NCBI GenBank assembly: GCA_963801355.1
Contig: CAWDEM010000004.1
Coordinates: 960,001-1,024,000, forward strand
Direction of reading: 5' to 3'
Length of the DNA stretch: 64,000 nucleotides
Origin: Ignavibacteriota bacterium
GTDB taxonomy: Bacteria > Bacteroidota > Ignavibacteria > UBA10030 > UBA6906
Shown: positions 12,507 through 29,337 of the stretch, piece after piece
Layout: each line of letters starts with the position of its first letter
Numbering within the stretch: the first letter of the stretch is position 1
Notes under the pieces: generated by a model
Databases searched by the model: none
What the model was told of the DNA's origin: nothing
The model's input: only the letters and a program-made list of their open reading frames with translations
Translations under genes and position numbers: made by a program

Positions 12507-14939
12507 ATGTCGAACCAGCTTCGTTACGAGAGCATTCTCGAAAGCATTAGCGGCGGGTTCTTTGCAATGGACTCCCGGTACATCATCACGTACTGGAATC
12601 GCGCGGCAGAGGTCGGAACCCAGTTGAAGGCCGAGGAAGTCCTCGGTCAGAATGTATTCGATGTCTTTCCGAATGCGCGCGGGGCCCTGCTCGGCGAGAA
12701 ATACCGCCAGGCGATGGAGACCCGCACCTATCAGAGTTTCGAAACCGCCTACCGCGATGAACGTTTCGAGCGGTGGTATGACGTCCGGATTTATCCCGCG
12801 GAAGACGGGCTCTCCGTTTTTCTGCAGGACGTGACCGAACGGAAACGAGACCAGAAGCGCAAGGAATTTCTCGTCGAGATTTCACGGGCGGTCAACGGTG
12901 CCCAGTATCTCGACGATTTGTGCCAGCGTTCGGCCACGGTCATCGCCGATGCGTTTGAGATCCCGCCGCACCTCGTGTGCGTCTATCTCTACGATCCACG
13001 CGGAAACGAAGTGCGGCTGGTTGCCCCGACCCTGCTCGGCGTCGACGTGCCCGCACACATCGCCCACCAGCGGGTCTGTGCCGATGCACCGCATGTCGCG
13101 GCGAGAACGGCGTTCACGCGTGAACCCATCCTCACGGAACACATCGACACCGGGACCGTCGGACACCTGCCCGGCGCATCGGTGCACGGCCTGCCGCTCC
13201 GTACACTGATTGCCATGCCGCTCATCGTCCAGAGTGAGCTGCAGGGCGTGATCGAAGTGCTGACGATTAAAGAGTTCGCATACGCCCAGGAAGAGATGGA
13301 GATTCTCGACATCGCTTCGAAGGATATTGCGCTGGCGATGAGTCGCAAACGGCTCATTGACGAGCTGCGGATGAAGAACCTGGAGCTTGAAGCACAAACG
13401 GAGCGCACGCTGGAAGCAAGCGACACGCTCAAGAAGTTTCTTGCCATGTTCAGTCATGAGTTGCGCTCGCCGTTGAATTCCATTATCGGGTTCTCGGAGC
13501 TCCTGTCCGGCACGATGGATGATCTCGGGGCCGAAAAGACCCGGGAGTTCATGAAGAACATCAATATGAGCGGGCGGCACCTGCAACACATTCTGAACGA
13601 CATCCTTGATCTCTCAAAGATAGAGGCAGGGCAGATGGATCTCCACATCGCCAGCTATCCTGTCAGCTATTTTGAGGAAAGCGTGAATGGCGTACTTGCC
13701 GGTATGCTTGCAGACAAGCAGGTGCGCTTGAAATTCGCGTTTGACAGCGAGATCGATCAGATTGTCGTCGACCAGGTGCGCTTCAAGCAGATCCTGATCA
13801 ATCTGATTTCCAACGCGGTGAAATTCAGTCATCCCGGAGGGACGGTGACGGTCAGCTCGTTACGCGTGGGGAACGACCTCCACTTTGCAGTGAAGGATGA
13901 AGGGACCGGGATTAGAAAAGAAGACCTCCCGACATTATTCAAACCGTTCAAGCAGGCGAAGTCGGACACAGGCCAAAACAAGGGTGGGATTGGACTTGGT
14001 CTGGCGATCTCGAGAAAACTCGTGGAGCTGCACGGTGGGACGATCTGGATAGAGAGTGAGTGGGGGAAGGGGACGACGGTAGCCTTCAAAGTGCCGATGG
14101 TCGTCGATGCCACCTCTGAAAAGATCGTGCAGGCGGGGATGCTGCTGGACGCACTCAAACGTGAAAACTGGCGCAAAGAGGGGGGGGAGAAACCGCTGGC
14201 GCTCGTCGTGGAAGACTCTCCCCCGGCGGCGGAGCTGCTCCGGGTGTACATCGAATCTGCAGGTTACACCGTCGAAATCGCGCGAAACGGCACCGATGCC
14301 GTGGATCTGGCAAAGCGCTTGCACCCCAACGTCATCACCCTTGACCTCTTGCTCCCCGGAAAAGACGGCTGGCAGGTGCTCAATGAGTTGAAACGGCACC
14401 CGCTCTGCAAACAAATTCCGGTCATTATCGTATCCATTATTGATGAGAAGAATCTGGGCTTCAGCCTGGGAGCAGTGGAGTACTTTGTGAAACCGGTGAA
14501 CCGGGATGACCTGGTGCAGGCTCTTGACCGCGTCCATCTGCTTCCCTCGAAGGAAGAAGAGAAGCCGACGGTGCTGGTGATCGATGACGATCGGGCCGCC
14601 ACGGATCTGGTCCAGGTGATTCTGGAGAACGAAGGGTACAGGGTCCTGAAAGCCTTTCACGGGCAGGAAGGTGTGGAGGTTGCGACGCGGGAGCGTCCTG
14701 ATGTGGTCATCCTCGACCTTCTCATGCCGGAAATGTCCGGCGTGGCAGTCGCACATCAGCTGAAACAGATCCCTGCAACACGTGCAATTCCCATTATCGT
14801 CCTGACCTCACTGGACGTGGACGAGACCATGCAGGAAGAACTGGGGAGTGCGGTCTCCGGGCTGGTCAGCAAATCGAGCTTCACGAAGAAGGAACTGCTG
14901 CGCGAGATCACCAACATCGAGAATGCCCGCTGGCCATAA
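12507..14939 (+). CDS. Hybrid histidine kinase PAS-GAF-HisKA-HATPase-REC-REC
   Basis: SHELRSPL H-box, NLISNAVKF, GIGLGL, two receiver domains (TLDLLLP, ILDLLMP). Confidence 0.93.
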   Translation: MSNQLRYESILESISGGFFAMDSRYIITYWNRAAEVGTQLKAEEVLGQNVFDVFPNARGALLGEKYRQAMETRTYQSFETAYRDERFERWYDVRIYPAEDGLSVFLQDVTERKRDQKRKEFLVEISRAVNGAQYLDDLCQRSATVIADAFEIPPHLVCVYLYDPRGNEVRLVAPTLLGVDVPAHIAHQRVCADAPHVAARTAFTREPILTEHIDTGTVGHLPGASVHGLPLRTLIAMPLIVQSELQGVIEVLTIKEFAYAQEEMEILDIASKDIALAMSRKRLIDELRMKNLELEAQTERTLEASDTLKKFLAMFSHELRSPLNSIIGFSELLSGTMDDLGAEKTREFMKNINMSGRHLQHILNDILDLSKIEAGQMDLHIASYPVSYFEESVNGVLAGMLADKQVRLKFAFDSEIDQIVVDQVRFKQILINLISNAVKFSHPGGTVTVSSLRVGNDLHFAVKDEGTGIRKEDLPTLFKPFKQAKSDTGQNKGGIGLGLAISRKLVELHGGTIWIESEWGKGTTVAFKVPMVVDATSEKIVQAGMLLDALKRENWRKEGGEKPLALVVEDSPPAAELLRVYIESAGYTVEIARNGTDAVDLAKRLHPNVITLDLLLPGKDGWQVLNELKRHPLCKQIPVIIVSIIDEKNLGFSLGAVEYFVKPVNRDDLVQALDRVHLLPSKEEEKPTVLVIDDDRAATDLVQVILENEGYRVLKAFHGQEGVEVATRERPDVVILDLLMPEMSGVAVAHQLKQIPATRAIPIIVLTSLDVDETMQEELGSAVSGLVSKSSFTKKELLREITNIENARWP

Positions 14940-21878: not shown

Positions 21879-21952
21879 GGGCCCTTAGCTCAGTTGGTTA
21901 GAGCGACAGACTCATAATCTGTTGGTCGCAGGTTCGAGTCCTGCAGGGCCCA
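21879..21952 (+). tRNA. tRNA with CAT anticodon, probably tRNA-Ile2 (lysidine type); CCA not encoded directly after the discriminator
   Basis: GGGCCCTTAGCTCAGTTGGTTAGAGC...ACAGA-CTCATAA-TCTGT...GGTTCGAGTCC...AGGGCCCA; resembles ileX-type tRNAs. Confidence 0.92.
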
Positions 21953-22072
21953 CACCATTTCTCCCCCCCCCCACCTTGGGACATCCCGTCCCGGATTTCT
22001 GGCGCAGAAATTGCTTCGTCAATGAGGTGTTGAGACACGGAGCAACATACGTCCAGAACTCATAGGTTCGGT

Positions 22073-22453
22073 ATGAAGATTCTTTTGGTCGATGACGAAA
22101 GAGGTTTTCTCGCTATTATGGGGGATATTCTCCGTGAGAACGGGCACAATATCCTTCTCGCGGAAAACGGGAAACAGGCACGGGAAGCCCTGGAATTTGA
22201 GCGCGTTGACCTCATAATTTCCGATGTCTTCATGCCGACTCTCGATGGTGTCCGATTCCACGACTACGTGAGGGAGTTCACCGATGCACAGGACATTCCC
22301 TTCATTTTCATGTCAGGTTTTGATGACGAGCACACGCGCAGCCTGGTTGTGGACCCCGCGATTGACTTCTTTTTGAGCAAAACCACCCCGGTTGAAAAAG
22401 TTCTCGATCTTATCAATAGCCTGAAAATCGAAAAAGAGGCGAAACCGGGATGA
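22073..22453 (+). CDS. Single-domain response regulator (REC)
   Basis: ILLVDDE, LIISDVFMPTLDG, FMSG, FLSK. Confidence 0.92.
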   Translation: MKILLVDDERGFLAIMGDILRENGHNILLAENGKQAREALEFERVDLIISDVFMPTLDGVRFHDYVREFTDAQDIPFIFMSGFDDEHTRSLVVDPAIDFFLSKTTPVEKVLDLINSLKIEKEAKPG

Positions 22454-24261
22454 GCGCGCCTACCATGGACACGAAAGAACCGGTGGCTCAGGGAGGACGT
22501 GTCGGCCCGCATGTCATGGCGTCTTTCTTTGACCACCTGGTTAAGAATCAGATCATTACCCCCGCCCAGGCCGCCCAGGCGGCCCTGTGGAAAGACCAGA
22601 ATGTGGCGGAAAAGCGCACCATGGTCGAAATGATCGAACAGGAGTTCGGCATCAACCGCGATGTGGTGCGCCAACAGATTGCACAATATTACGCATTCAG
22701 GATCATCGACCCCCGCGACCGGTCGGTGCGCCGCCTACTGCCATCCGAAATCAACAAGATTCTTCGCGCTCTCCCGGAGCACGTGATGCAACAGCTCCTG
22801 AAAGCGCAGTTGCTTCCGTACGATCATGCCGAGAACCAGCCTGACAAGATTGTGTTGGTTACGCCAAACCCCTCCGATCGGGAGATCCACAAGCTGGCCC
22901 GTACACTCCCATACAAGAAATTTGAGATTTGCTATCTGAGGGAGGCCGACTGGATTGAATACTGGGGTGTGCTCACTGCTGAGCGTGAAAAGCCTACCCC
23001 GGAAAAAGTTGTTTCCCCGCCGGCCGAGAGCACCGAATCTGATTTCGAAAGTGTGATGGACCGCGAAATCAGCCGGACGCAGTTGAACTCACTGCTGGAA
23101 AATATCTTTGCAGACGCGTTGCGGAATCGTGCGACGGAAATCCATTTCATGCCGCTGGGACCACGGAGGACGGACGTCCTGTTCCGCCTCGATGGTCACC
23201 TTTCCCTCTGGGTCAGCATGGAGGATGTTCGATGCGAAGCAGTACCGACCGCATTGAAAATGTTGACGGGCAACATGGATCGTTATGAGCGGATGGCTGC
23301 CCAGCAGGGGATGATATTCAGGATGGTGGAGAAGATGCCGCTGCGCATGAGCGCGTCCAGTATCCCGATCGCTTCCGGTGATCCGGGCTTGCGCTATGAG
23401 TCGGTTGTGCTTCACCTCATCAGGGAAACAGAATCTGTACCTTCGCTGCGGAACATCGGACTCGACGCACATTCGGCAGACGTTCTGAACGCTGCACTCA
23501 CCGGCAGGCGAGGGATTGTCCTCTTTGCCGGCTTCGATCACTATGCCCTCCGCACGGCGATCGCCGCATCGCTGAAGTCGATAGTCAAGCCTGCGCTCAA
23601 CATCATGACGATTGAAGAACGGCTGAGCTATCTGGTGGACGGTGTTCGTCAGATCAAACTCAACCCGCGCCTCTCGGCAAGCGATGCCGTGCGCGCAATT
23701 GATGGGCATGATCCGGATGTTGTTTTCCTGGGAGAAATTGACGGCCCCGAGATCGCTGCAGTGGCGCTCCGGTTGGCCAATATTGGGCAATTGGTTCTCT
23801 GCAGTATCCATGCCCGTGACGCCGTCACCTCCCTGGCACGTCTGCTGCGCATCGTGGGTGACGGACTGGTCCTCGGTGATGCGTTGAGCGCCGTCGTGGC
23901 CCAACAAACCGTCCGGACACTCTGTTCCCGCTGCAAACAACAGCTGCAGCCGCCCTCATTGCCGCTCGCCATTGCGCATCTGAGACTCCGTGAGGGAGAA
24001 TCTGCGCCTTCAAAGGTCCATCGTGCCGTGGGATGCATCGACTGCCACGGAGGATATCTGGGTCAGGAGATGCTCTTTGAGGCGTTTCCCATAACCCCGG
24101 GGATTCGCGATATACTTGCGGGATCTGACGGGTGTCTGAACAACGATGCTGTCATCAAATCAGCCATGCTTGATGGTATGATCCCCATTCGCAACAAAGG
24201 GCTGGAATTGGTTGACAAGGGTCAAACCACCGTCGATCAGCTGCTTCACTTCGCTGTTTGA
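22450..24261 (+). CDS. PilB/GspE-like protein with degenerate ATPase motifs
   Basis: Colinear with the PilB at 27011; Walker A position reads AGFDHYALRT; retains DPDVVFLGE and CSRC/CIDC. Confidence 0.85.
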   Translation: MSAPTMDTKEPVAQGGRVGPHVMASFFDHLVKNQIITPAQAAQAALWKDQNVAEKRTMVEMIEQEFGINRDVVRQQIAQYYAFRIIDPRDRSVRRLLPSEINKILRALPEHVMQQLLKAQLLPYDHAENQPDKIVLVTPNPSDREIHKLARTLPYKKFEICYLREADWIEYWGVLTAEREKPTPEKVVSPPAESTESDFESVMDREISRTQLNSLLENIFADALRNRATEIHFMPLGPRRTDVLFRLDGHLSLWVSMEDVRCEAVPTALKMLTGNMDRYERMAAQQGMIFRMVEKMPLRMSASSIPIASGDPGLRYESVVLHLIRETESVPSLRNIGLDAHSADVLNAALTGRRGIVLFAGFDHYALRTAIAASLKSIVKPALNIMTIEERLSYLVDGVRQIKLNPRLSASDAVRAIDGHDPDVVFLGEIDGPEIAAVALRLANIGQLVLCSIHARDAVTSLARLLRIVGDGLVLGDALSAVVAQQTVRTLCSRCKQQLQPPSLPLAIAHLRLREGESAPSKVHRAVGCIDCHGGYLGQEMLFEAFPITPGIRDILAGSDGCLNNDAVIKSAMLDGMIPIRNKGLELVDKGQTTVDQLLHFAV

Positions 24262-24279
24262 GAGACGTGATATGGAATC

Positions 24280-24313
24280 ACACGGAGACTCAGATTTCTG
24301 AGTCTCCGTGTTT
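24280..24313 (+). terminator. Intrinsic terminator after the PilB-like gene
   Basis: Perfect inverted repeat ACACGGAGACTCAGA-TT-TCTGAGTCTCCGTGT followed by a short T run. Confidence 0.75.
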
Positions 24314-24351
24314 ACTTCACGTTCAGGATTCCGTCCAGCAACTTCTCTCAG

Positions 24352-24497: not shown

Positions 24498-24513
24498 TGG
24501 CACGGCAGTTGCT
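24498..24513 (+). promoter_or_regulatory. Sigma54 (-24/-12) promoter of the major pilin-like gene
   Basis: TGGCACG-GCAG-TTGCT matches consensus TGGCACG-N4-TTGCW. Confidence 0.85.
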
Positions 24514-24590: not shown

Positions 24591-24998
24591 ATGGGACAGC
24601 AGCAACTTCTTCTGATCATCCTCGGCGTTATCGTTGTCGGTATCGCAGTGGCGGTCGGAATCACGATGTTCACGGACAACGCAGTGAATGCCAACCGCGA
24701 TGCGGTCACCAATGACCTCGTCAACCTGGCTGCGCGTGCCCAGCAGTTCTATCGCCGTCCGACTGCCCTCGGCGGTGGCGGGAACTCATTTGTCGGTCTG
24801 ACCGGTACAACCGGCCTGGCAAAACTGACCAACCGTGCCGTCAATGCAAACGGGAGCTATACGATTCAAACTGCCGGATCGGCAACCGGTGTCGTGATCC
24901 GCGGCGTCGGGACCGAGCATTCCGATGCGTCCAACTTTGTAACGATGGACATCTACGTCTTCAACGACAAAGCGGATAGTGTGGTGCTGGTTCACTAG
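24591..24998 (+). CDS. Putative major pilin-like protein, leaderless
   Basis: MGQQQ plus hydrophobic helix, amphipathic helix and small beta-rich head; strong AAGGAG SD; T4P context. Confidence 0.75.
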   Translation: MGQQQLLLIILGVIVVGIAVAVGITMFTDNAVNANRDAVTNDLVNLAARAQQFYRRPTALGGGGNSFVGLTGTTGLAKLTNRAVNANGSYTIQTAGSATGVVIRGVGTEHSDASNFVTMDIYVFNDKADSVVLVH

Positions 24999-25070: not shown

Positions 25071-25457
25071 ATGGGGAGTCAGCAGCTGTTGCTCATCATT
25101 GTCGGGGTGCTGATGATCGGTTTGTCGATTGCCATCGGGATCACATTGTTCTCTGATAGCGCTGCAGCGTCAAACAGAGATGCCGTTGGAACCGATCTGG
25201 AGTCGCACGCTTCGAAGGCGCAGGTGTTCTACCGGCGCCCCAAGTCTATGGGAGGTGGCGGCAGCTCGTTTGTGGGGTTCACGCTGACTGAACAGAGCGC
25301 GAAGAACCACAACGGGGAATATGATGTCTCTGGTGCAACCAGCTCGTCGGTGACGATTCAAGGGACCGGGCACGAGATCGGTTATGACCGGTCAACACCG
25401 GTGATGGTGGCCATCACGGTCACCCCGGACTCGATTTTGGTAACCGAATTGAACTAG
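25071..25457 (+). CDS. Second pilin-like protein, paralog of 24591
   Basis: MGSQQLLLII...NRDAV...AQVFYRRP..GGGG.SFVG shared with 24591. Confidence 0.75.
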   Translation: MGSQQLLLIIVGVLMIGLSIAIGITLFSDSAAASNRDAVGTDLESHASKAQVFYRRPKSMGGGGSSFVGFTLTEQSAKNHNGEYDVSGATSSSVTIQGTGHEIGYDRSTPVMVAITVTPDSILVTELN

Positions 25458-25615: not shown

Positions 25616-26995
25616 ATGCCAGAATTCAGAATTGAAGGTATCACAGTCGCAGGGAAACCGGTGCAGGGCCTCCTGGAGGCAGATTCTCTCCGTGGAGCCA
25701 AGACGAAAGCATCGCAACTTGCAGCGCAGCGCAAATTCAAACTGGTGAAGGTCACCCAGCGATCGACATGGGTGTACAAGGTGCAACGGGGGACAGAAAA
25801 GCCGATTATCGGTGAGCAGAAGGCTTTCACCCGTGCCGAGGTCGAAGATGCATTGCTGAAAATGGGCTTCCGGGTTCTTCGCATCCAGAAGCGGCTCTTC
25901 AACTTCAAATCCAAACCGCCGGCCACCGAGATTGTGACCTTCGTGCGGGTGAGCGCCGATCTGATCCGGCAGAAGCTCCCCTTCAATGAGATCCTGCAGC
26001 TCCTCGTCAATGACCTGGAGAACCGCACACTGCGCGAGGCGGTCAAAGACATCAATATGGAGCTCAAACAGGGCAAGGACAGCGAAAAGGCGTTCGTCAA
26101 GCACGAAGCGGTGCTGGGGCGCTTTGCGGCCCACATGCTGGGCCTTGCTTCCAAGAGCGGGAACATGGCCGAGATTTATGAAAGCACGGCGAAGTTCCTG
26201 GAGCGGCAAACGCAATTCAAGAAGGACCTGCGCAGCGCACTGATCACTCCCATCGTGACACTCGTGGTATTGTTCGGGGCGGTGGTGTACTATGTGGCTT
26301 ACATCTTTCCGGCCACGGCGAAACTCTTTGTGAAATTCAAGATCGACCTGCCGCCGATGACGAAGGCGACGCTGGCCATGAGCGATTTTCTCGTAGACAA
26401 CATGCTCATCATTCTCGTGCTGACCGCCATTCCGATCATTCTGCTGGCGAGGTTCCTTGCGACGGAGCGCGGCCGCTTGCTGCGCGATCAGTACATCTGG
26501 CGCGTTCCCGTGATCGGCACGCTGTTGCAGAAAACGAGCATCGAGATCTTCTGCCGCGTGTTCTATGCGCTCTACAGCGGCTCGGGTGAGAATATCGAAG
26601 TCATCCGCATGGCCGCGGAGGCCTGCGGCAACAAGTATATGGAAGCCCGGGTCAAGAACGTTGCTATTCCCATGATGATCCAGAAGGGGGCGGGTATTAC
26701 GGAGGCGTTTGAACAGACCGGGGTCTTCACACGAACGGCAATTTCACGCTTTCACTCGGGTGCGGAAACGGGCACAGTGAAAAACACCGCCCTCCAGCTG
26801 GCCGAGTATTACGAGAAAGAAACGACGTACAAGATGCGCAATGTGATCGAGTTTATCCAGCTCTGGATCTCGATGGTCATCATGATCGTGCTGACAGCCC
26901 TCACGATTGTTTCCTCCGAGACAGCCACCATCCGCCCGAAGAATCCCGCGGCCGGCCAGGCAATCGAGCTGCGCATTGACAAACCCCTGACCTAG
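25616..26995 (+). CDS. pilC: Type IV pilus / T2SS inner membrane platform protein (PilC/GspF family)
   Basis: MPEF..G...GKPVQGLLEADS N-terminus, DLPPMTKA, PVIGTL, GAETG, LAEYYE; three TM segments. Confidence 0.88.
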   Translation: MPEFRIEGITVAGKPVQGLLEADSLRGAKTKASQLAAQRKFKLVKVTQRSTWVYKVQRGTEKPIIGEQKAFTRAEVEDALLKMGFRVLRIQKRLFNFKSKPPATEIVTFVRVSADLIRQKLPFNEILQLLVNDLENRTLREAVKDINMELKQGKDSEKAFVKHEAVLGRFAAHMLGLASKSGNMAEIYESTAKFLERQTQFKKDLRSALITPIVTLVVLFGAVVYYVAYIFPATAKLFVKFKIDLPPMTKATLAMSDFLVDNMLIILVLTAIPIILLARFLATERGRLLRDQYIWRVPVIGTLLQKTSIEIFCRVFYALYSGSGENIEVIRMAAEACGNKYMEARVKNVAIPMMIQKGAGITEAFEQTGVFTRTAISRFHSGAETGTVKNTALQLAEYYEKETTYKMRNVIEFIQLWISMVIMIVLTALTIVSSETATIRPKNPAAGQAIELRIDKPLT

Positions 26996-27010: not shown

Positions 27011-28804
27011 ATGCCACCCATCGATATCACAGACAAGATCGGTTTCGCCCTCCTCAAGAAGGGTGTCATCGACTACGAAACGCTCGAGAAGTCCCTCAGG
27101 GTCAAAGATTCTGAAGACAAGAAGAACCGGAGAAACCTCGGGCAGATTCTGGTGAATGACTTCGGCGCCGACCATGATGCGGTGTTCCGTGAAGTGGCGG
27201 ACCTGTACGCCTTCCGGGAAATCTATCTCGCCGATGAACGGACCGACCGCAGCCGGATCGATTTTATCCGGAAGTACATTGATGTGCTCCCGCAGAATAT
27301 CCGGGAACTGGTCATGCAGACCAAGATGCTTCCGCTGAAGTTCGACGAGAAGCAGGCGGACAAGCTGATCATCATCGCTTCCGATCCGACCGATCGGCGC
27401 ATCCCGCTGATTGCCCGTGAATTCAACGCGAAGAAATACGAGATCGCCTATTGCCGGCTCAAAGACCTGCAGGCGTTGCTGGAGCAGGTCATCCCGCCCG
27501 AGAACGAATTCCTGCGGCAACTGGAAGTCAGCCAGGTCGGCATTCAAGTCAAAGAAGAGGAGGATGAAACCGCACTTGATGAGGATGCGCTGGAAGCGGA
27601 GATCAGCAAAAGCGCACTCGTCAACCTGGTGGAAGGTGCGCTCGTCGAATCGGTCCGGCAGGGCGCGAGCGATATCCACATTGTCGCAAAAGAAGGGAAC
27701 CGCACGGAATTCTGGTTCCGCGTGGATGGCGGCCTGAAGCTCTGGCATGCGCAGGAAAAGACGATGCCGGAAGCAATCGCAGCGGTCGTGAAAGACCGGT
27801 CAAAGAACGTCGACCGGTTCGAACGGGAAATGACACAGGATGGTTTCATCCAGCGCCTGATCGACGATCACATGATCCGCTTCCGCGTTTCCATCATGCC
27901 GATCGTCGGCATCGAGTTCCGGCACAAGTACGAAAGCATCGTGATCCGCGTGCTTGACGACCGCAAGGTCATCACCGATCTCACCAAGCTCGGGCTCATG
28001 GGGCCTTCGAATGAATTCTTCCATAAGGCGATCGAAAGGCCGCAGGGCATCGTCATTCTGACCGGTCCCACCGGATGCGGAAAAAGTACAACCCTGATCG
28101 CTGCACTGCATCAGGTGATCGATCCCAGCGTGAACGTGCTGACGGTGGAGGACCCTGTGGAGTACATCATCCGGGGAGCCCGCCAGCTGCGCATCGGTCC
28201 CAAGATGAACTTCGACCAGGCTATTCGCGGCATTCTTCGCCACGACCCCGATATCGTGCTCGTCGGCGAGATGCGTGACAAGACGACCGCGGAAATCGCC
28301 ATCAAACTGGCCAACACCGGCCATCTCACATTCTCCACCCTGCACACAAACGACGCGCCCAGCGCAATTTCCCGCCTCTACAAGATGGGGATTGAGCCGT
28401 TCCTGATTGCGTACGCCATCAACATCATCGTCGCCCAGCGCCTGGTTCGCACCATCTGCAAAGAGTGCAGACGCCCGCTCGGGAAGGACGAAATCGACAA
28501 GGACGTCTACCTGAAATTCGGCTTTACCGAAGAGGATCTGGAGCAACACACGATTTACGAGGCGATCGGATGCGATAAGTGCATTGGCGGATACAAAGGG
28601 CGTGCGGCGATTCACGAAGCCCTCTATTTCACGCGGGAAATCCGCAATCTCATCGCGAAGGCCGGAGAAGAAGTCGACGAGGAAAAATTGCGCGACCAGG
28701 CGATCCGCGACGGCATGTGGACACTCCGGCGGTCCGGCATCGAACGCATCAAGATGGGGCAGACCACACTCGAAGAAATCGCGGCAGCCACCACTGACGA
28801 TTAG
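27011..28804 (+). CDS. pilB: Type IV pilus assembly ATPase (PilB/GspE family)
   Basis: ASDIHI, GPTGCGKSTT, TVEDPVE, RHDPDIVLVGEMRD, TGHLTFSTLHTN, CKEC/CDKC; MshEN-like N-terminus. Confidence 0.93.
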   Translation: MPPIDITDKIGFALLKKGVIDYETLEKSLRVKDSEDKKNRRNLGQILVNDFGADHDAVFREVADLYAFREIYLADERTDRSRIDFIRKYIDVLPQNIRELVMQTKMLPLKFDEKQADKLIIIASDPTDRRIPLIAREFNAKKYEIAYCRLKDLQALLEQVIPPENEFLRQLEVSQVGIQVKEEEDETALDEDALEAEISKSALVNLVEGALVESVRQGASDIHIVAKEGNRTEFWFRVDGGLKLWHAQEKTMPEAIAAVVKDRSKNVDRFEREMTQDGFIQRLIDDHMIRFRVSIMPIVGIEFRHKYESIVIRVLDDRKVITDLTKLGLMGPSNEFFHKAIERPQGIVILTGPTGCGKSTTLIAALHQVIDPSVNVLTVEDPVEYIIRGARQLRIGPKMNFDQAIRGILRHDPDIVLVGEMRDKTTAEIAIKLANTGHLTFSTLHTNDAPSAISRLYKMGIEPFLIAYAINIIVAQRLVRTICKECRRPLGKDEIDKDVYLKFGFTEEDLEQHTIYEAIGCDKCIGGYKGRAAIHEALYFTREIRNLIAKAGEEVDEEKLRDQAIRDGMWTLRRSGIERIKMGQTTLEEIAAATTDD

Positions 28805-28813
28805 GTACGAAGC

Positions 28814-29317
28814 ATGGGACTCGGACAAACGCTGTTGAGTGTTTTCGCGCTGGCCCTGCTCGGGACAGCGATCCTGATGATGAACAACACTGTCTTTGAC
28901 AGCGGCACGGCAATAGAGACGTCGGAGTACTTCATCATGGGGACATCACTGGGCATTTCCCAGCTCGAGAGCGCGTCAGGGAAGGCCTTCGATGATCATA
29001 CCGTCTCCAACGATATCGCATCGCCTGCCGCCCTCACGATCACGCTCGGCAAGGAAATGGGTGAAACGGAGCCGACCTTTGATGACTATGATGATTACCA
29101 CGGCCTGTCCAAATGGGTGAACGGCGACTCCATCAACTTCCGGTCCGCCAGCTTCCTGATCAGGGATTCCGTGGACTATGTGACGATCTCGGGGAACACG
29201 GTGGTACCATCCGGGTCTCGAACGTACCATAAGCGCCTCCGGGTCTGGGTCTCGAGCCCGTCCATGCGTGATACGCTCAGGTTTTCATCGGTCTACAGTT
29301 ACTGGTATTTCCGGTAG
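28814..29317 (+). CDS. Putative minor pilin-like protein
   Basis: MGLGQ plus hydrophobic helix; FDDYDDY motif; follows pilB. Confidence 0.65.
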   Translation: MGLGQTLLSVFALALLGTAILMMNNTVFDSGTAIETSEYFIMGTSLGISQLESASGKAFDDHTVSNDIASPAALTITLGKEMGETEPTFDDYDDYHGLSKWVNGDSINFRSASFLIRDSVDYVTISGNTVVPSGSRTYHKRLRVWVSSPSMRDTLRFSSVYSYWYFR

Positions 29318-29337
29318 CTCCAACAAAGGAAGGCGCC

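Follow-up and report, generated by a model that had tools for sequence, protein, structure and literature searches.

What use does a bacterium have for a second copy of its pilus extension ATPase, once that copy has lost the residues needed to hydrolyse ATP? The question is raised by a locus in a 64,000-nucleotide stretch of DNA (the window) from an Ignavibacteriota bacterium (GenBank assembly GCA_963801355.1, contig CAWDEM010000004.1, positions 960,001 to 1,024,000), where a type IV pilus operon opens with a gene for a single-domain response regulator (the receiver) and, directly behind it, a gene for a paralog of the extension ATPase PilB. A catalytically intact PilB is encoded further along the same operon. 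The genome (4.8 Mb, 8 contigs, 100% complete) contains three T2SSE genes above the Pfam cut-off, these being the paralog, PilB and a PilT-type protein, all in one operon, which is the sole type IV pilus operon of the genome. A preliminary description of the locus had called the paralog a maintained pseudo-ATPase that could poison or tune PilB hexamers, or compete for PilC or PilM, under phosphorylation control. The analysis presented here bears on two questions. One is what decides between extension and retraction in a type IV pilus machine; the other, raised in the 2024 review PMC11656802, concerns the purpose of second PilB homologs. All coordinates are collected in Table 1.

Active site and fold of the paralog

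The paralog and the operon PilB are colinear from end to end, with 29% identity over 577 aligned positions, 8 gaps and an E-value of 8e-97, and the paralog scores 170.1 bits against the T2SSE model over residues 211-598, the Pfam cut-off being 24.9. The conserved catalytic set of the PilT-like ATPases consists of the Walker A motif GxxxxGK[ST], a catalytic Glu past an atypical Walker B and, in the numbering of Geobacter PilB, the arginine fingers R271 and R286, the Mg-binding Asp-box Glu E357, and the His-box residues H413 and H420 (McCallum et al., bioRxiv 082750). Eight catalytic positions were placed on the window proteins by alignment of the window PilB to the Geobacter PilB chain, with a 20-residue tag offset. 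The paralog retains two of the eight (E429 and H454), and six are gone.

The losses are spread over the whole site. Walker A of the paralog (residues 361-370) reads GFDHYALRTA against GPTGCGKSTT in PilB; the Lys has become Leu and the Ser/Thr has become Arg, and the pattern GxxxxGK[ST] is not found. The Asp box (387-393) reads TIEERLS against TVEDPVE, and the His box (445-455) IGQLVLCSIHA against TGHLTFSTLHT, with the first His replaced by Gln447. The open reading frames (ORFs), coordinates, motif strings and colinearity given in the preliminary description were all correct on re-checking, and its account of the Asp box can be refined: by the Geobacter mapping the key Mg-binding residue is the last Glu of TVEDPVE, which is Ser393 in the paralog, and both arginine fingers have additionally been replaced, by S301 and H322. 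In the closest relative (L036, 91% identical) Walker A is GFDHYALCTA, so that even the Arg that might have stood in for the Lys is changed.

The structural residues have fared differently. It had been noted that the full-length frame and the four zinc-binding cysteines are retained, and this holds over the relatives: the frame is 603 residues long, and the cysteines, which belong to a tetracysteine motif named as a feature of the PilB/GspE clade (bioRxiv 082750), are invariant in all 44 aligned relatives and in all 42 of the degenerate paralogs described below. The AlphaFold2 model of the paralog has a mean predicted local distance difference test (pLDDT) score of 82.6, mostly above 90 in the ATPase core, and its best Foldseek matches are PilF, PilB and GspE (5oiu, 5it5, 5tsh and 4pht, E-values 1e-32 to 1e-30), with the bilobed fold of second N-terminal domain (N2) and C-terminal ATPase domain (CTD) recovered. 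The model thus depicts a protein whose scaffold is retained and whose active site is dismantled. Judged by its residues, the paralog is a pseudo-ATPase, that is, an enzyme homolog without its catalytic residues that is nevertheless under purifying selection.

It is worth adding that the paralog falls below the cut-off of the type IV-A PilB equivalog TIGR02538 (175.9 bits against 675.65). The active PilB of the operon also falls below it, at 409.5 bits, and the window pilus system as a whole therefore lies outside this equivalog.

Relatives and the history of the catalytic loss

A word-indexed search returned about 50 full-length homologs of the paralog, at 32-91% identity, below which the score drops sharply, from 334 to 164 bits, and ordinary PilBs begin. 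In scans of genome and metagenome collections, 28 and 59 loci were recovered. The named records are metagenome-assembled genomes of Bacteroidota or Ignavibacteriota, together with one labelled Aminicenantes. Over dozens of loci the same gene order recurs: receiver, PilB paralog, pilins, PilC, PilB, often three minor-pilin-like genes, and then PilT, the PilM-like protein, a 298-aa protein and the secretin. The 5' flank of the relatives carries the same TPR, FeoB, Fur and 140-aa genes. Because both the gene order and the upstream flank recur, the pilus operon looks vertically inherited.

Within this conserved setting, the two PilB-type genes have behaved very differently. All 31 of the PilBs that follow PilC have the eight catalytic positions intact. 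Among the receiver-linked paralogs, four of the five early-branching ones also have all eight, and each of the remaining 42 has just two to six, in many combinations. Of these 42, 25 have Arg in place of the Walker Lys, 5 have Leu, 5 Ala and 2 Val, and 5 retain the Lys itself; arginine finger 1 survives in 6, and the catalytic Glu, which the window copy retains, in just 16. A further degenerate paralog added later (L129) has only one of the eight. Members of the degenerate group have thus lost between two and seven catalytic residues, in lineage-specific sets, the window copy having lost six.

A tree of 68 rows places all 44 degenerate sequences in one clade, with a Shimodaira-Hasegawa-like approximate likelihood ratio test (SH-aLRT) value of 100. 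Its sister is a group of 14 receiver-linked paralogs, of which 13 have all eight positions and one has seven, and both groups are nested in a 58-row receiver-linked clade, again with SH-aLRT 100. This tree leaves out the outgroup PilBs, four distant rows and all but six of the PilBs following PilC (in the first tree, every second PilB following PilC was left out). Three of 27 loci (L096, L117 and L126), for which the longest ORF was a spurious one on the opposite strand, were left out of the 68-row tree and of the genus table, two of these genomes being represented by L013 and L027. Since the paralog alignment includes the catalytic columns, a second tree was built from other genes, namely FeoB, Fur, PilC, PilB and PilT. 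It recovers a 34-row clade (SH-aLRT 100) that takes in each of the 28 degenerate loci and leaves all 7 of the intact loci outside. By genus, intact paralogs are found in g6, g13, g27, g30, g31, g32, g35, g36 and g39, and degenerate ones in g1 (that of the window), g7, g8, g10, g14, g15, g28, g33, g37 and g38.

It had been suggested that orthologs with an intact Walker A would speak against a maintained pseudo-ATPase. Such orthologs do exist, in at least nine sister genera that keep all eight positions, and to this extent the objection holds. Because the sister genera keep the full set, the dead state is a derived condition of one clade and not a property of the family. On these trees, the ancestral gene was an active second PilB that was already coupled to the receiver, and catalysis became unnecessary once, in the ancestor of a clade of several genera, the active site having drifted since then.

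This history bears on whether the window protein is still a motor, either by binding nucleotide residually or as a weak ATPase with a non-canonical site, so as to form a second extension motor like TfpB of Acinetobacter baylyi. The orthologs of the sister genera are probably true second motors, the clade with Lys to Arg keeps GxxGxGR[ST] and the Asp box, and the window copy itself keeps the catalytic Glu and the second His. Against this, the glycine-rich loop of Walker A has gone from the window copy, the Mg-binding Glu, both arginine fingers and the first His of the His box are replaced, and L036 lacks even the substitute Arg. The paralog was also considered as a TfpB ortholog, and this was rejected, as it scores 165.5 bits against a cut-off of 850 for the TfpB model NF053534. 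We regard a residual motor function of the window protein as extremely improbable.

Constraint on a dead ATPase

The rates of nonsynonymous and synonymous substitution (dN and dS) show that the paralog is not drifting freely. Between the window and L036 (dS 0.56), the paralog has a dN/dS of 0.084, made up of 0.055 for the N-terminal MshEN-type domain (N1), 0.071 for N2, 0.159 for the ATPase domain (the highest of the four) and 0.074 for the C-terminal part. In the same comparison the receiver has 0.024, the two pilins 0.09 and 0.155, and the first 165 codons of PilC 0.043. Over 10 pairs that cover all three degenerate subclades, the dN/dS of the paralog is 0.048-0.106, with ORFs taken from stop to stop and a few upstream codons thereby included; that of the main PilB, in the 6 of these pairs where it could be measured, is 0.023-0.042. 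For the intact-type paralogs one pair was measurable, with a dN/dS of 0.049 and a dN ratio to PilB of 1.35, the other four of the five pairs being saturated. The preliminary description had named neutral decay as the outcome that would count against a maintained protein, and none of the 10 pairs displays it. With the frame open in relatives and the PilB fold confidently predicted, the description of the paralog as a maintained pseudo-ATPase is borne out.

The constraint is unevenly distributed. In the same genome pairs, identity to the window copies is 76-88% for PilB, PilC and PilT, 57-80% for the receiver and 35-49% for the paralog (full-length matches). Mean column conservation in N1, N2 and CTD is 0.77, 0.66 and 0.61 in the dead clade, 0.70, 0.82 and 0.89 in the intact sister group, and 0.90, 0.93 and 0.94 in the main PilB, although comparisons of these means between clades depend on how each clade was sampled. 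The pattern across the alignment indicates that constraint in the dead clade has shifted from the ATPase core to the N-terminal domain. At 58 positions, conservation is 90% or higher in the degenerate clade, the intact sister group and the main PilB alike.

We also note that between the window and a second genome of the same genus (G004, locus L109), dS is 2.9 for the receiver and 2.0 for the paralog, while PilC, PilB and PilT have 1.0-1.3, which is about half. This could reflect differences in codon usage or a separate history of the operon head.

The N-terminal domain

The domain to which constraint appears to have moved is modelled separately (residues 1-195) with a pLDDT of 83. Foldseek matches it to the N-terminal domain of Xanthomonas PilB with PilZ (7lko, E 3.8e-6), to that of MshE with cyclic di-GMP (c-di-GMP; 5htl, E 4.3e-5) and to GSPII-B entries of PilF (E 3e-4). 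The Pfam model MshEN was not detected on the paralog. In both of the systems with known structures the fold is a regulatory input module of the ATPase, bound to PilZ and FimX in Xanthomonas citri (PDB 7LKO; PMC8389850) and to c-di-GMP in MshE (PDB 5HTL; PMC5013675).

The published motif for c-di-GMP binding is a tandem of the 24-residue sequence RLGxx(L/V/I)(L/V/I)xxG(L/V/I)(L/V/I)xxxxLxxxLxxQ (PMC5013675). A relaxed form of this motif is found in none of the 44 degenerate and none of the 17 intact-type paralogs, in which respect the window paralog differs from MshE. Canonical c-di-GMP binding by this domain was therefore rejected. Since the motif is absent from all of these paralogs, a protein-docking role for the conserved N-terminal domain is more probable than one as a canonical c-di-GMP sensor. 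Of 29 main PilBs, 27 carry a single copy of the relaxed motif; in the window PilB it lies at residues 9-32 and reads KIGFALLKKGVIDYETLEKSLRVK, and the second tandem copy has no match.

The receiver and its linkage to the paralog

The receiver has a complete phospho-acceptor set (D7, D8, D51, S81 and K103). Among 79 orthologs, D7 and D8 are each present in 75, D51 in 77, and S81 and K103 in all 79, the misses being alignment gaps. By these residues it is a normal phospho-acceptor domain.

The receiver gene lies directly 5' of the paralog in all loci where upstream DNA is present, and 52 of 72 junctions, as counted on maximal ORFs, are of 12 nt or less; among these, the 4-nt overlap of the window occurs 8 times and a 1-nt gap 21 times. 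The linkage is nearly universal. In the window, the overlap with a single-domain receiver gene that had been pointed out earlier is indeed present, the stop of one gene and the start of the other sharing ATGA at 22450-22453. Close homologs of the paralog have Met at position 6 in 14 of 15 cases and start there in 11 of 15, and the true start could be the ATG at 22465, 11 nt past the receiver stop.

The phosphorylation control that had been proposed could work through direct binding of the receiver to the paralog, and complex prediction gives such binding weak support. With alignments of 26 rows for each protein, the pair scored 0.43 (runs of 0.33, 0.45 and 0.43) against 0.00 for the best of three controls, with a contact agreement between runs of at least 44% and a partner pLDDT of at least 78. 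In calibration, 116 of 157 solved complexes came up to this mark, as did 2 of 215 mismatched pairs; 18 of the 157 solved complexes and both passing mismatches lie at or below 0.60, where a pass is more often wrong than right unless the pair was likely beforehand. The prediction adds modestly to what the gene linkage already suggests.

Receivers are known to act on PilB elsewhere. EmvR binds PilB and lowers its ATPase activity (PMC11973254), and DrdR binds both PilB and PilT (PMC13507683). These two proteins and the cyanobacterial PATAN-CheY regulators (bioRxiv 2021.06.11.447907) resemble the window receiver in lacking an output domain, and they act directly on a PilB-type ATPase, as the window receiver would. 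They are, however, orphans encoded elsewhere in the genome, and their target is an active motor, whereas the gene of the window receiver is coupled to that of a dead paralog and remains in genomes from which the paralog has gone.

In other lineages, receiver and PilB domains are fused in single proteins, namely P0091 and P0096 (MshEN-T2SSE-REC) and P0097 (REC-REC-MshEN-T2SSE), all three with an intact Walker A. By analogy, these fusions, like EmvR and DrdR, are an independent hint that receiver and paralog bind each other. A hybrid kinase encoded at 12507-14939 was considered as the cognate kinase of the receiver and set aside, as it is not conserved 5' of the receiver in relatives, unlike the TPR, FeoB, Fur and 140-aa genes.

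A proposed role at the motor-docking site

The reading that we favour, with moderate confidence, is that the paralog acts at the motor-docking site of the pilus machine as a non-catalytic look-alike of PilB under the control of the receiver. Through its N-terminal docking domain and its ring-forming body it would occupy or bridge the site of the real motors. It could do so by competing with them, by serving as a placeholder or adaptor, or by joining PilB in a mixed ring. The input would come from the adjacent canonical phospho-receiver, binding much as single-domain response regulators bind PilB in Xanthomonas. Since some relatives do without the gene, its function would be modulatory and dispensable.

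A non-catalytic role gains credibility from precedents. A PilT with a dead Walker box still supports retraction via PilU in Vibrio cholerae (PMC11656802), which shows that the hexameric body of a pilus ATPase can be useful without ATP hydrolysis, as a docking or adaptor ring; that protein is a laboratory mutant of the retraction ATPase, whereas in the window it is a paralog of the extension ATPase that is dead, a state both ancient and fixed in nature. A Walker A-dead PilB of Myxococcus signals exopolysaccharide production (PMC11656802), and in M. xanthus (PMC5544727) the dead PilB likewise has a regulatory output that is independent of pilus assembly. That system has a single bifunctional PilB with an engineered mutation in place of a dedicated paralog, and no receiver partner is described for it. 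A parallel in gene content is found in Acinetobacter baylyi (PMC8213720, PMC11656802), whose type IV pilus system is served by TfpB, a second member of the PilB family, in addition to the main PilB; possible complexes or hetero-oligomers of the two have been raised (PMC11656802). TfpB is catalytically active and contributes to extension, whereas the window paralog lacks six of the eight catalytic residues and is paired with a receiver.

Accessory P-loop proteins that hydrolyse ATP poorly or not at all also sit at the motors of other type IV filaments, namely TadZ/CpaE in Tad pili, where TadZ has a receiver-like domain, and ArlH/FlaH in the archaellum. These belong to MinD/ParA-like and KaiC/RecA-like families, respectively, and are not dead copies of the motor ATPase.

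A more detailed version of the favoured reading is possible, and we offer it tentatively. In it, the dead PilB would dock on the PilC/PilM-like platform through its N-terminal domain, either as a ring of its own or as subunits alternating with PilB, and would work as a phospho-switchable clutch, the phosphorylated receiver deciding whether the platform is blocked, primed or handed over to the active PilB and to PilT. Non-catalytic subunits are familiar from the F1 and V1 ATPases. If such a clutch exists, the family, whose catalytically intact form survives in sister genera, would record the stepwise turn of a rotary motor subunit into a regulatory one.

Loss of the paralog in relatives

Several observations weigh against the favoured role at the docking site, among them that the gene can be lost. 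Among 54 family genomes of at least 90% completeness, 42 have a paralog-type match (378 bits or more, the main PilB scoring about 300-330), none of them with an internal stop, although the copy in G004 is split over several frames and that in G051 is partial; G062 has a partial match at a contig end, and the remaining 11 have no paralog-type match. The locus was inspected in six genomes without a match, five of the 54 together with G005 (87% complete, outside that set). In G005, G012, G014, G044 and G068 the receiver stands directly before the pilins with no paralog between, and in G001, which belongs to the genus of the window, both receiver and paralog are absent from the locus. In G004, of the same genus, the paralog is split over three frames and the receiver truncated; the PilM-like gene of this genome is also split, and the breaks may be assembly errors. 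The tree of the five other genes, taken as a proxy for the species, places G005, G012, G044, G001 and G004 inside the dead-paralog clade and G068 in the unresolved base. The paralog, though maintained in most lineages, has thus been deleted in at least five relatives, four of them with the receiver retained; it is dispensable, and in some lineages it may be drifting toward loss. Because the receiver persists where the paralog has been deleted, its role cannot depend on the paralog, and its main partner may be PilB or something else.

Further points on the same side are that, pair for pair, the paralog has 1.6 to 6 times the dN of PilB, that the predicted receiver-paralog complex scores in the range described above, in which a pass is usually wrong for a pair with no prior likelihood, and that the conservation means carry the sampling dependence noted above. 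In addition, the Asp box is retained in the members of the clade with Lys to Arg, and these may still be able to bind nucleotide, so that what 'dead' means may differ between subclades.

Much of this could be read as the slow death of a redundant second PilB, one which has lost catalysis, has no function of its own, and is still open because its decay is recent or incomplete. The absence of the gene in the six inspected genomes, the broken copy in G004, the raised dN, and the way in which catalytic residues erode differently in each lineage all fit such a duplicate. They have to be set against a dN/dS of 0.048-0.106 in pairs from every degenerate subclade, a frame of about 600 codons kept open over at least 10 genera despite identity as low as 35%, the zinc cysteines and the 58 shared conserved positions, and an N-terminal domain with a higher mean conservation in the dead clade (0.77) than among its intact sisters (0.70). 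The broken copy in G004 may itself be due to assembly errors, given the split PilM-like gene of that genome. We consider simple decay quite improbable.

It is also worth describing what replaces the lost genes in G001. At the place of receiver and paralog this locus (L106) has unrelated genes, including a 1053-aa transporter-like ORF and a 689-aa ORF, and an extra pilin-like gene; the operon head has been rearranged in this genome.

Putative transcription signals and a possible role off the motor

The 69-nt region just past the paralog (24262-24330) folds at -34.2 kcal/mol, with a z-score of -7.2 and none of 200 shuffles as stable. It contains the perfect hairpin listed in Table 1, which is a possible terminator or transcript end; a simple terminator scan did not flag this hairpin, as there is no T run.

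The sigma-54 -24/-12 consensus is TGGCAC-N5-TTGCW. The motif before the first pilin gene is the sole exact match in the window, where 0.08 are expected. At one mismatch or fewer there are 4 matches against 2.0 expected; three lie in intergenic regions of the pilus operon and the fourth inside a kinase gene at 14308. Of 74 loci scanned, 13 have a like motif 63-74 nt 5' of the receiver start; most of these belong to near relatives of the window, and L098 and L070 are also among them (a fourteenth match to the pattern, 6.7 kb from the receiver start, was excluded from this count). From these signals, the receiver-paralog pair may be a transcription unit of its own. A search for sequencing runs listed none with RNA covering 22073-24261.

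Separate transcription would suit a signalling protein that works away from the motor, in which a nucleotide-free PilB body takes its input from the receiver and has an output such as control of exopolysaccharide or biofilm. The model for this is M. xanthus, where PilB K327A raises exopolysaccharide and abolishes motility (PMC11656802, PMC5544727), and the strong hairpin, the separate sigma-54-type motif before the pilin, and the retention of pilus genes in genomes without the paralog are all compatible with it. On the other hand, every locus seen has the paralog in one place, at the head of the pilus operon, the protein has its N-terminal domain type, its zinc site and its N2-CTD architecture in common with the operon PilB, and no downstream target gene is linked to it. 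A role off the motor seems to us unlikely.

Occurrence of dead PilB modules and their significance

In the literature searched, no paralog of PilB or GspE was described as inactive by nature, and the available portion of PMC11656802, which deals with PilB cofactors and multiple PilB homologs, discusses just active paralogs. Pseudoenzymes, second PilBs and receiver-PilB interactions are each already known.

The window family is probably not alone. Among the best 147 newly returned cluster representatives of an exhaustive search, a sample biased toward relatives of a dead query, 10 lack GK[ST] in at least one ATPase domain. The same 147 include 14 tandem PilB-PilB fusions (within P0135-P0157) of about 1000 aa with two T2SSE domains, 13 of which keep GK[ST] in both halves; in the other, P0157, the Walker A Lys is missing from the first half. 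Dead PilB modules are thus, on their motifs, probably more widespread than this family, and the fusions are a hint, by analogy, that mixed rings are physically possible. Seven PilB/GspE-like proteins outside the family (P0084, P0100, P0101, P0105, P0147, P0167 and P0204) lack the Walker A Lys, several having Arg in its place; in one of them, from Vicinamibacterales, the motif reads GPTGSGATST and the His box is absent. Their occurrence suggests that dead PilB-like proteins arose repeatedly.

The family offers a natural separation-of-function series, from an active second PilB through versions with Lys to Arg and gutted versions to deletions that took the receiver as well or left it in place. 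Across the genomes of the series, the other parts of the pilus machine are about 78-93% identical, which would allow direct tests of functions of PilB that do not need ATP, such as docking, priming and signalling. There is also a practical consequence, in that annotation pipelines label the pseudo-ATPase 'type IV pilus assembly protein PilB'.

Other features of the locus

Table 1. Features of the pilus locus, with coordinates on the window.
Feature	Coordinates	Strand	Basis or remark
tRNA-Met (CAT)	21879..21953	+	ARAGORN; immediately 5' of receiver region, context only
Sigma-54-type motif TGGCGCAGAAATTGCT	22000..22015	+	58 nt before receiver ATG; one mismatch; candidate promoter of receiver-paralog pair
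Receiver, single-domain response regulator, 126 aa	22073..22453	+	PF00072 Response_reg, E 4.6e-20
PilB paralog, predicted catalytically dead, 603 aa	22450..24261	+	PF00437 T2SSE, E 7.2e-50
Paralog N-terminal MshEN/GSPII-type domain, aa 20-179	22507..22986	+	Foldseek on domain model
Paralog N2 domain, aa 196-330	23035..23439	+	Mapping via Geobacter PilB alignment and McCallum et al.
Paralog C-terminal ATPase-fold domain, aa 331-490	23440..23919	+	Catalytic-position mapping
Degenerate Walker A GFDHYALRTA, aa 361-370	23530..23559	+	Alignment to operon PilB
Paralog C-terminal region with tetracysteine zinc motif	23920..24258	+	C492, C495, C529, C532
14-bp perfect hairpin	24280..24311	+	RNA fold; 19 nt past paralog stop
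Exact sigma-54-type motif TGGCACGGCAGTTGCT	24498..24513	+	78 nt before first pilin gene
Two pilin-like genes	24591..24998 and 25071..25457	+	Translations; weak ComP_DUS match; position conserved in relatives
PilC/GspF platform protein	25616..26995	+	PF00482, E 2.9e-29
PilB, main extension ATPase, catalytically intact	27011..28804	+	PF00437, E 5e-96; 8/8 catalytic positions
Three minor-pilin-like genes (167, 214 and 414 aa), between PilB and PilT	28814..31239
Sigma-54-type motif, one mismatch	31344..31359		35 nt before PilT
PilT-family retraction ATPase	31394..32623	+	TIGR01420, E 2.3e-90
PilM-like protein	32658..34223	+	NF045709, weak match
298-aa protein	34254..35150	+
Secretin	35164..36411	+	PF00263 Secretin, E 1.4e-26

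The two pilin-like proteins open with MGQQQLLLIILGV (24591-24998) and MGSQQLLLIIVGV (25071-25457). In both, a hydrophobic helix lies right behind 'MG', and there is neither a long class III leader nor a Glu at position 5. The prepilin peptidase family PF01478 has no match in the 100%-complete window genome and is present in 12 of 14 control genomes. The window pilins may be of a type that is independent of PilD.

The trio of minor-pilin-like genes between PilB and PilT is missing in L137, L138, L140, L143 and L145, where PilT lies directly 3' of PilB. At the distal end of the operon, the PilM-like protein and the secretin (32658-36411) have weak matches to the Akkermansia pilus-complex families Amuc_1101 and Amuc_1098, which hints at a kinship of the window pilus with the little-studied Akkermansia pilus type.

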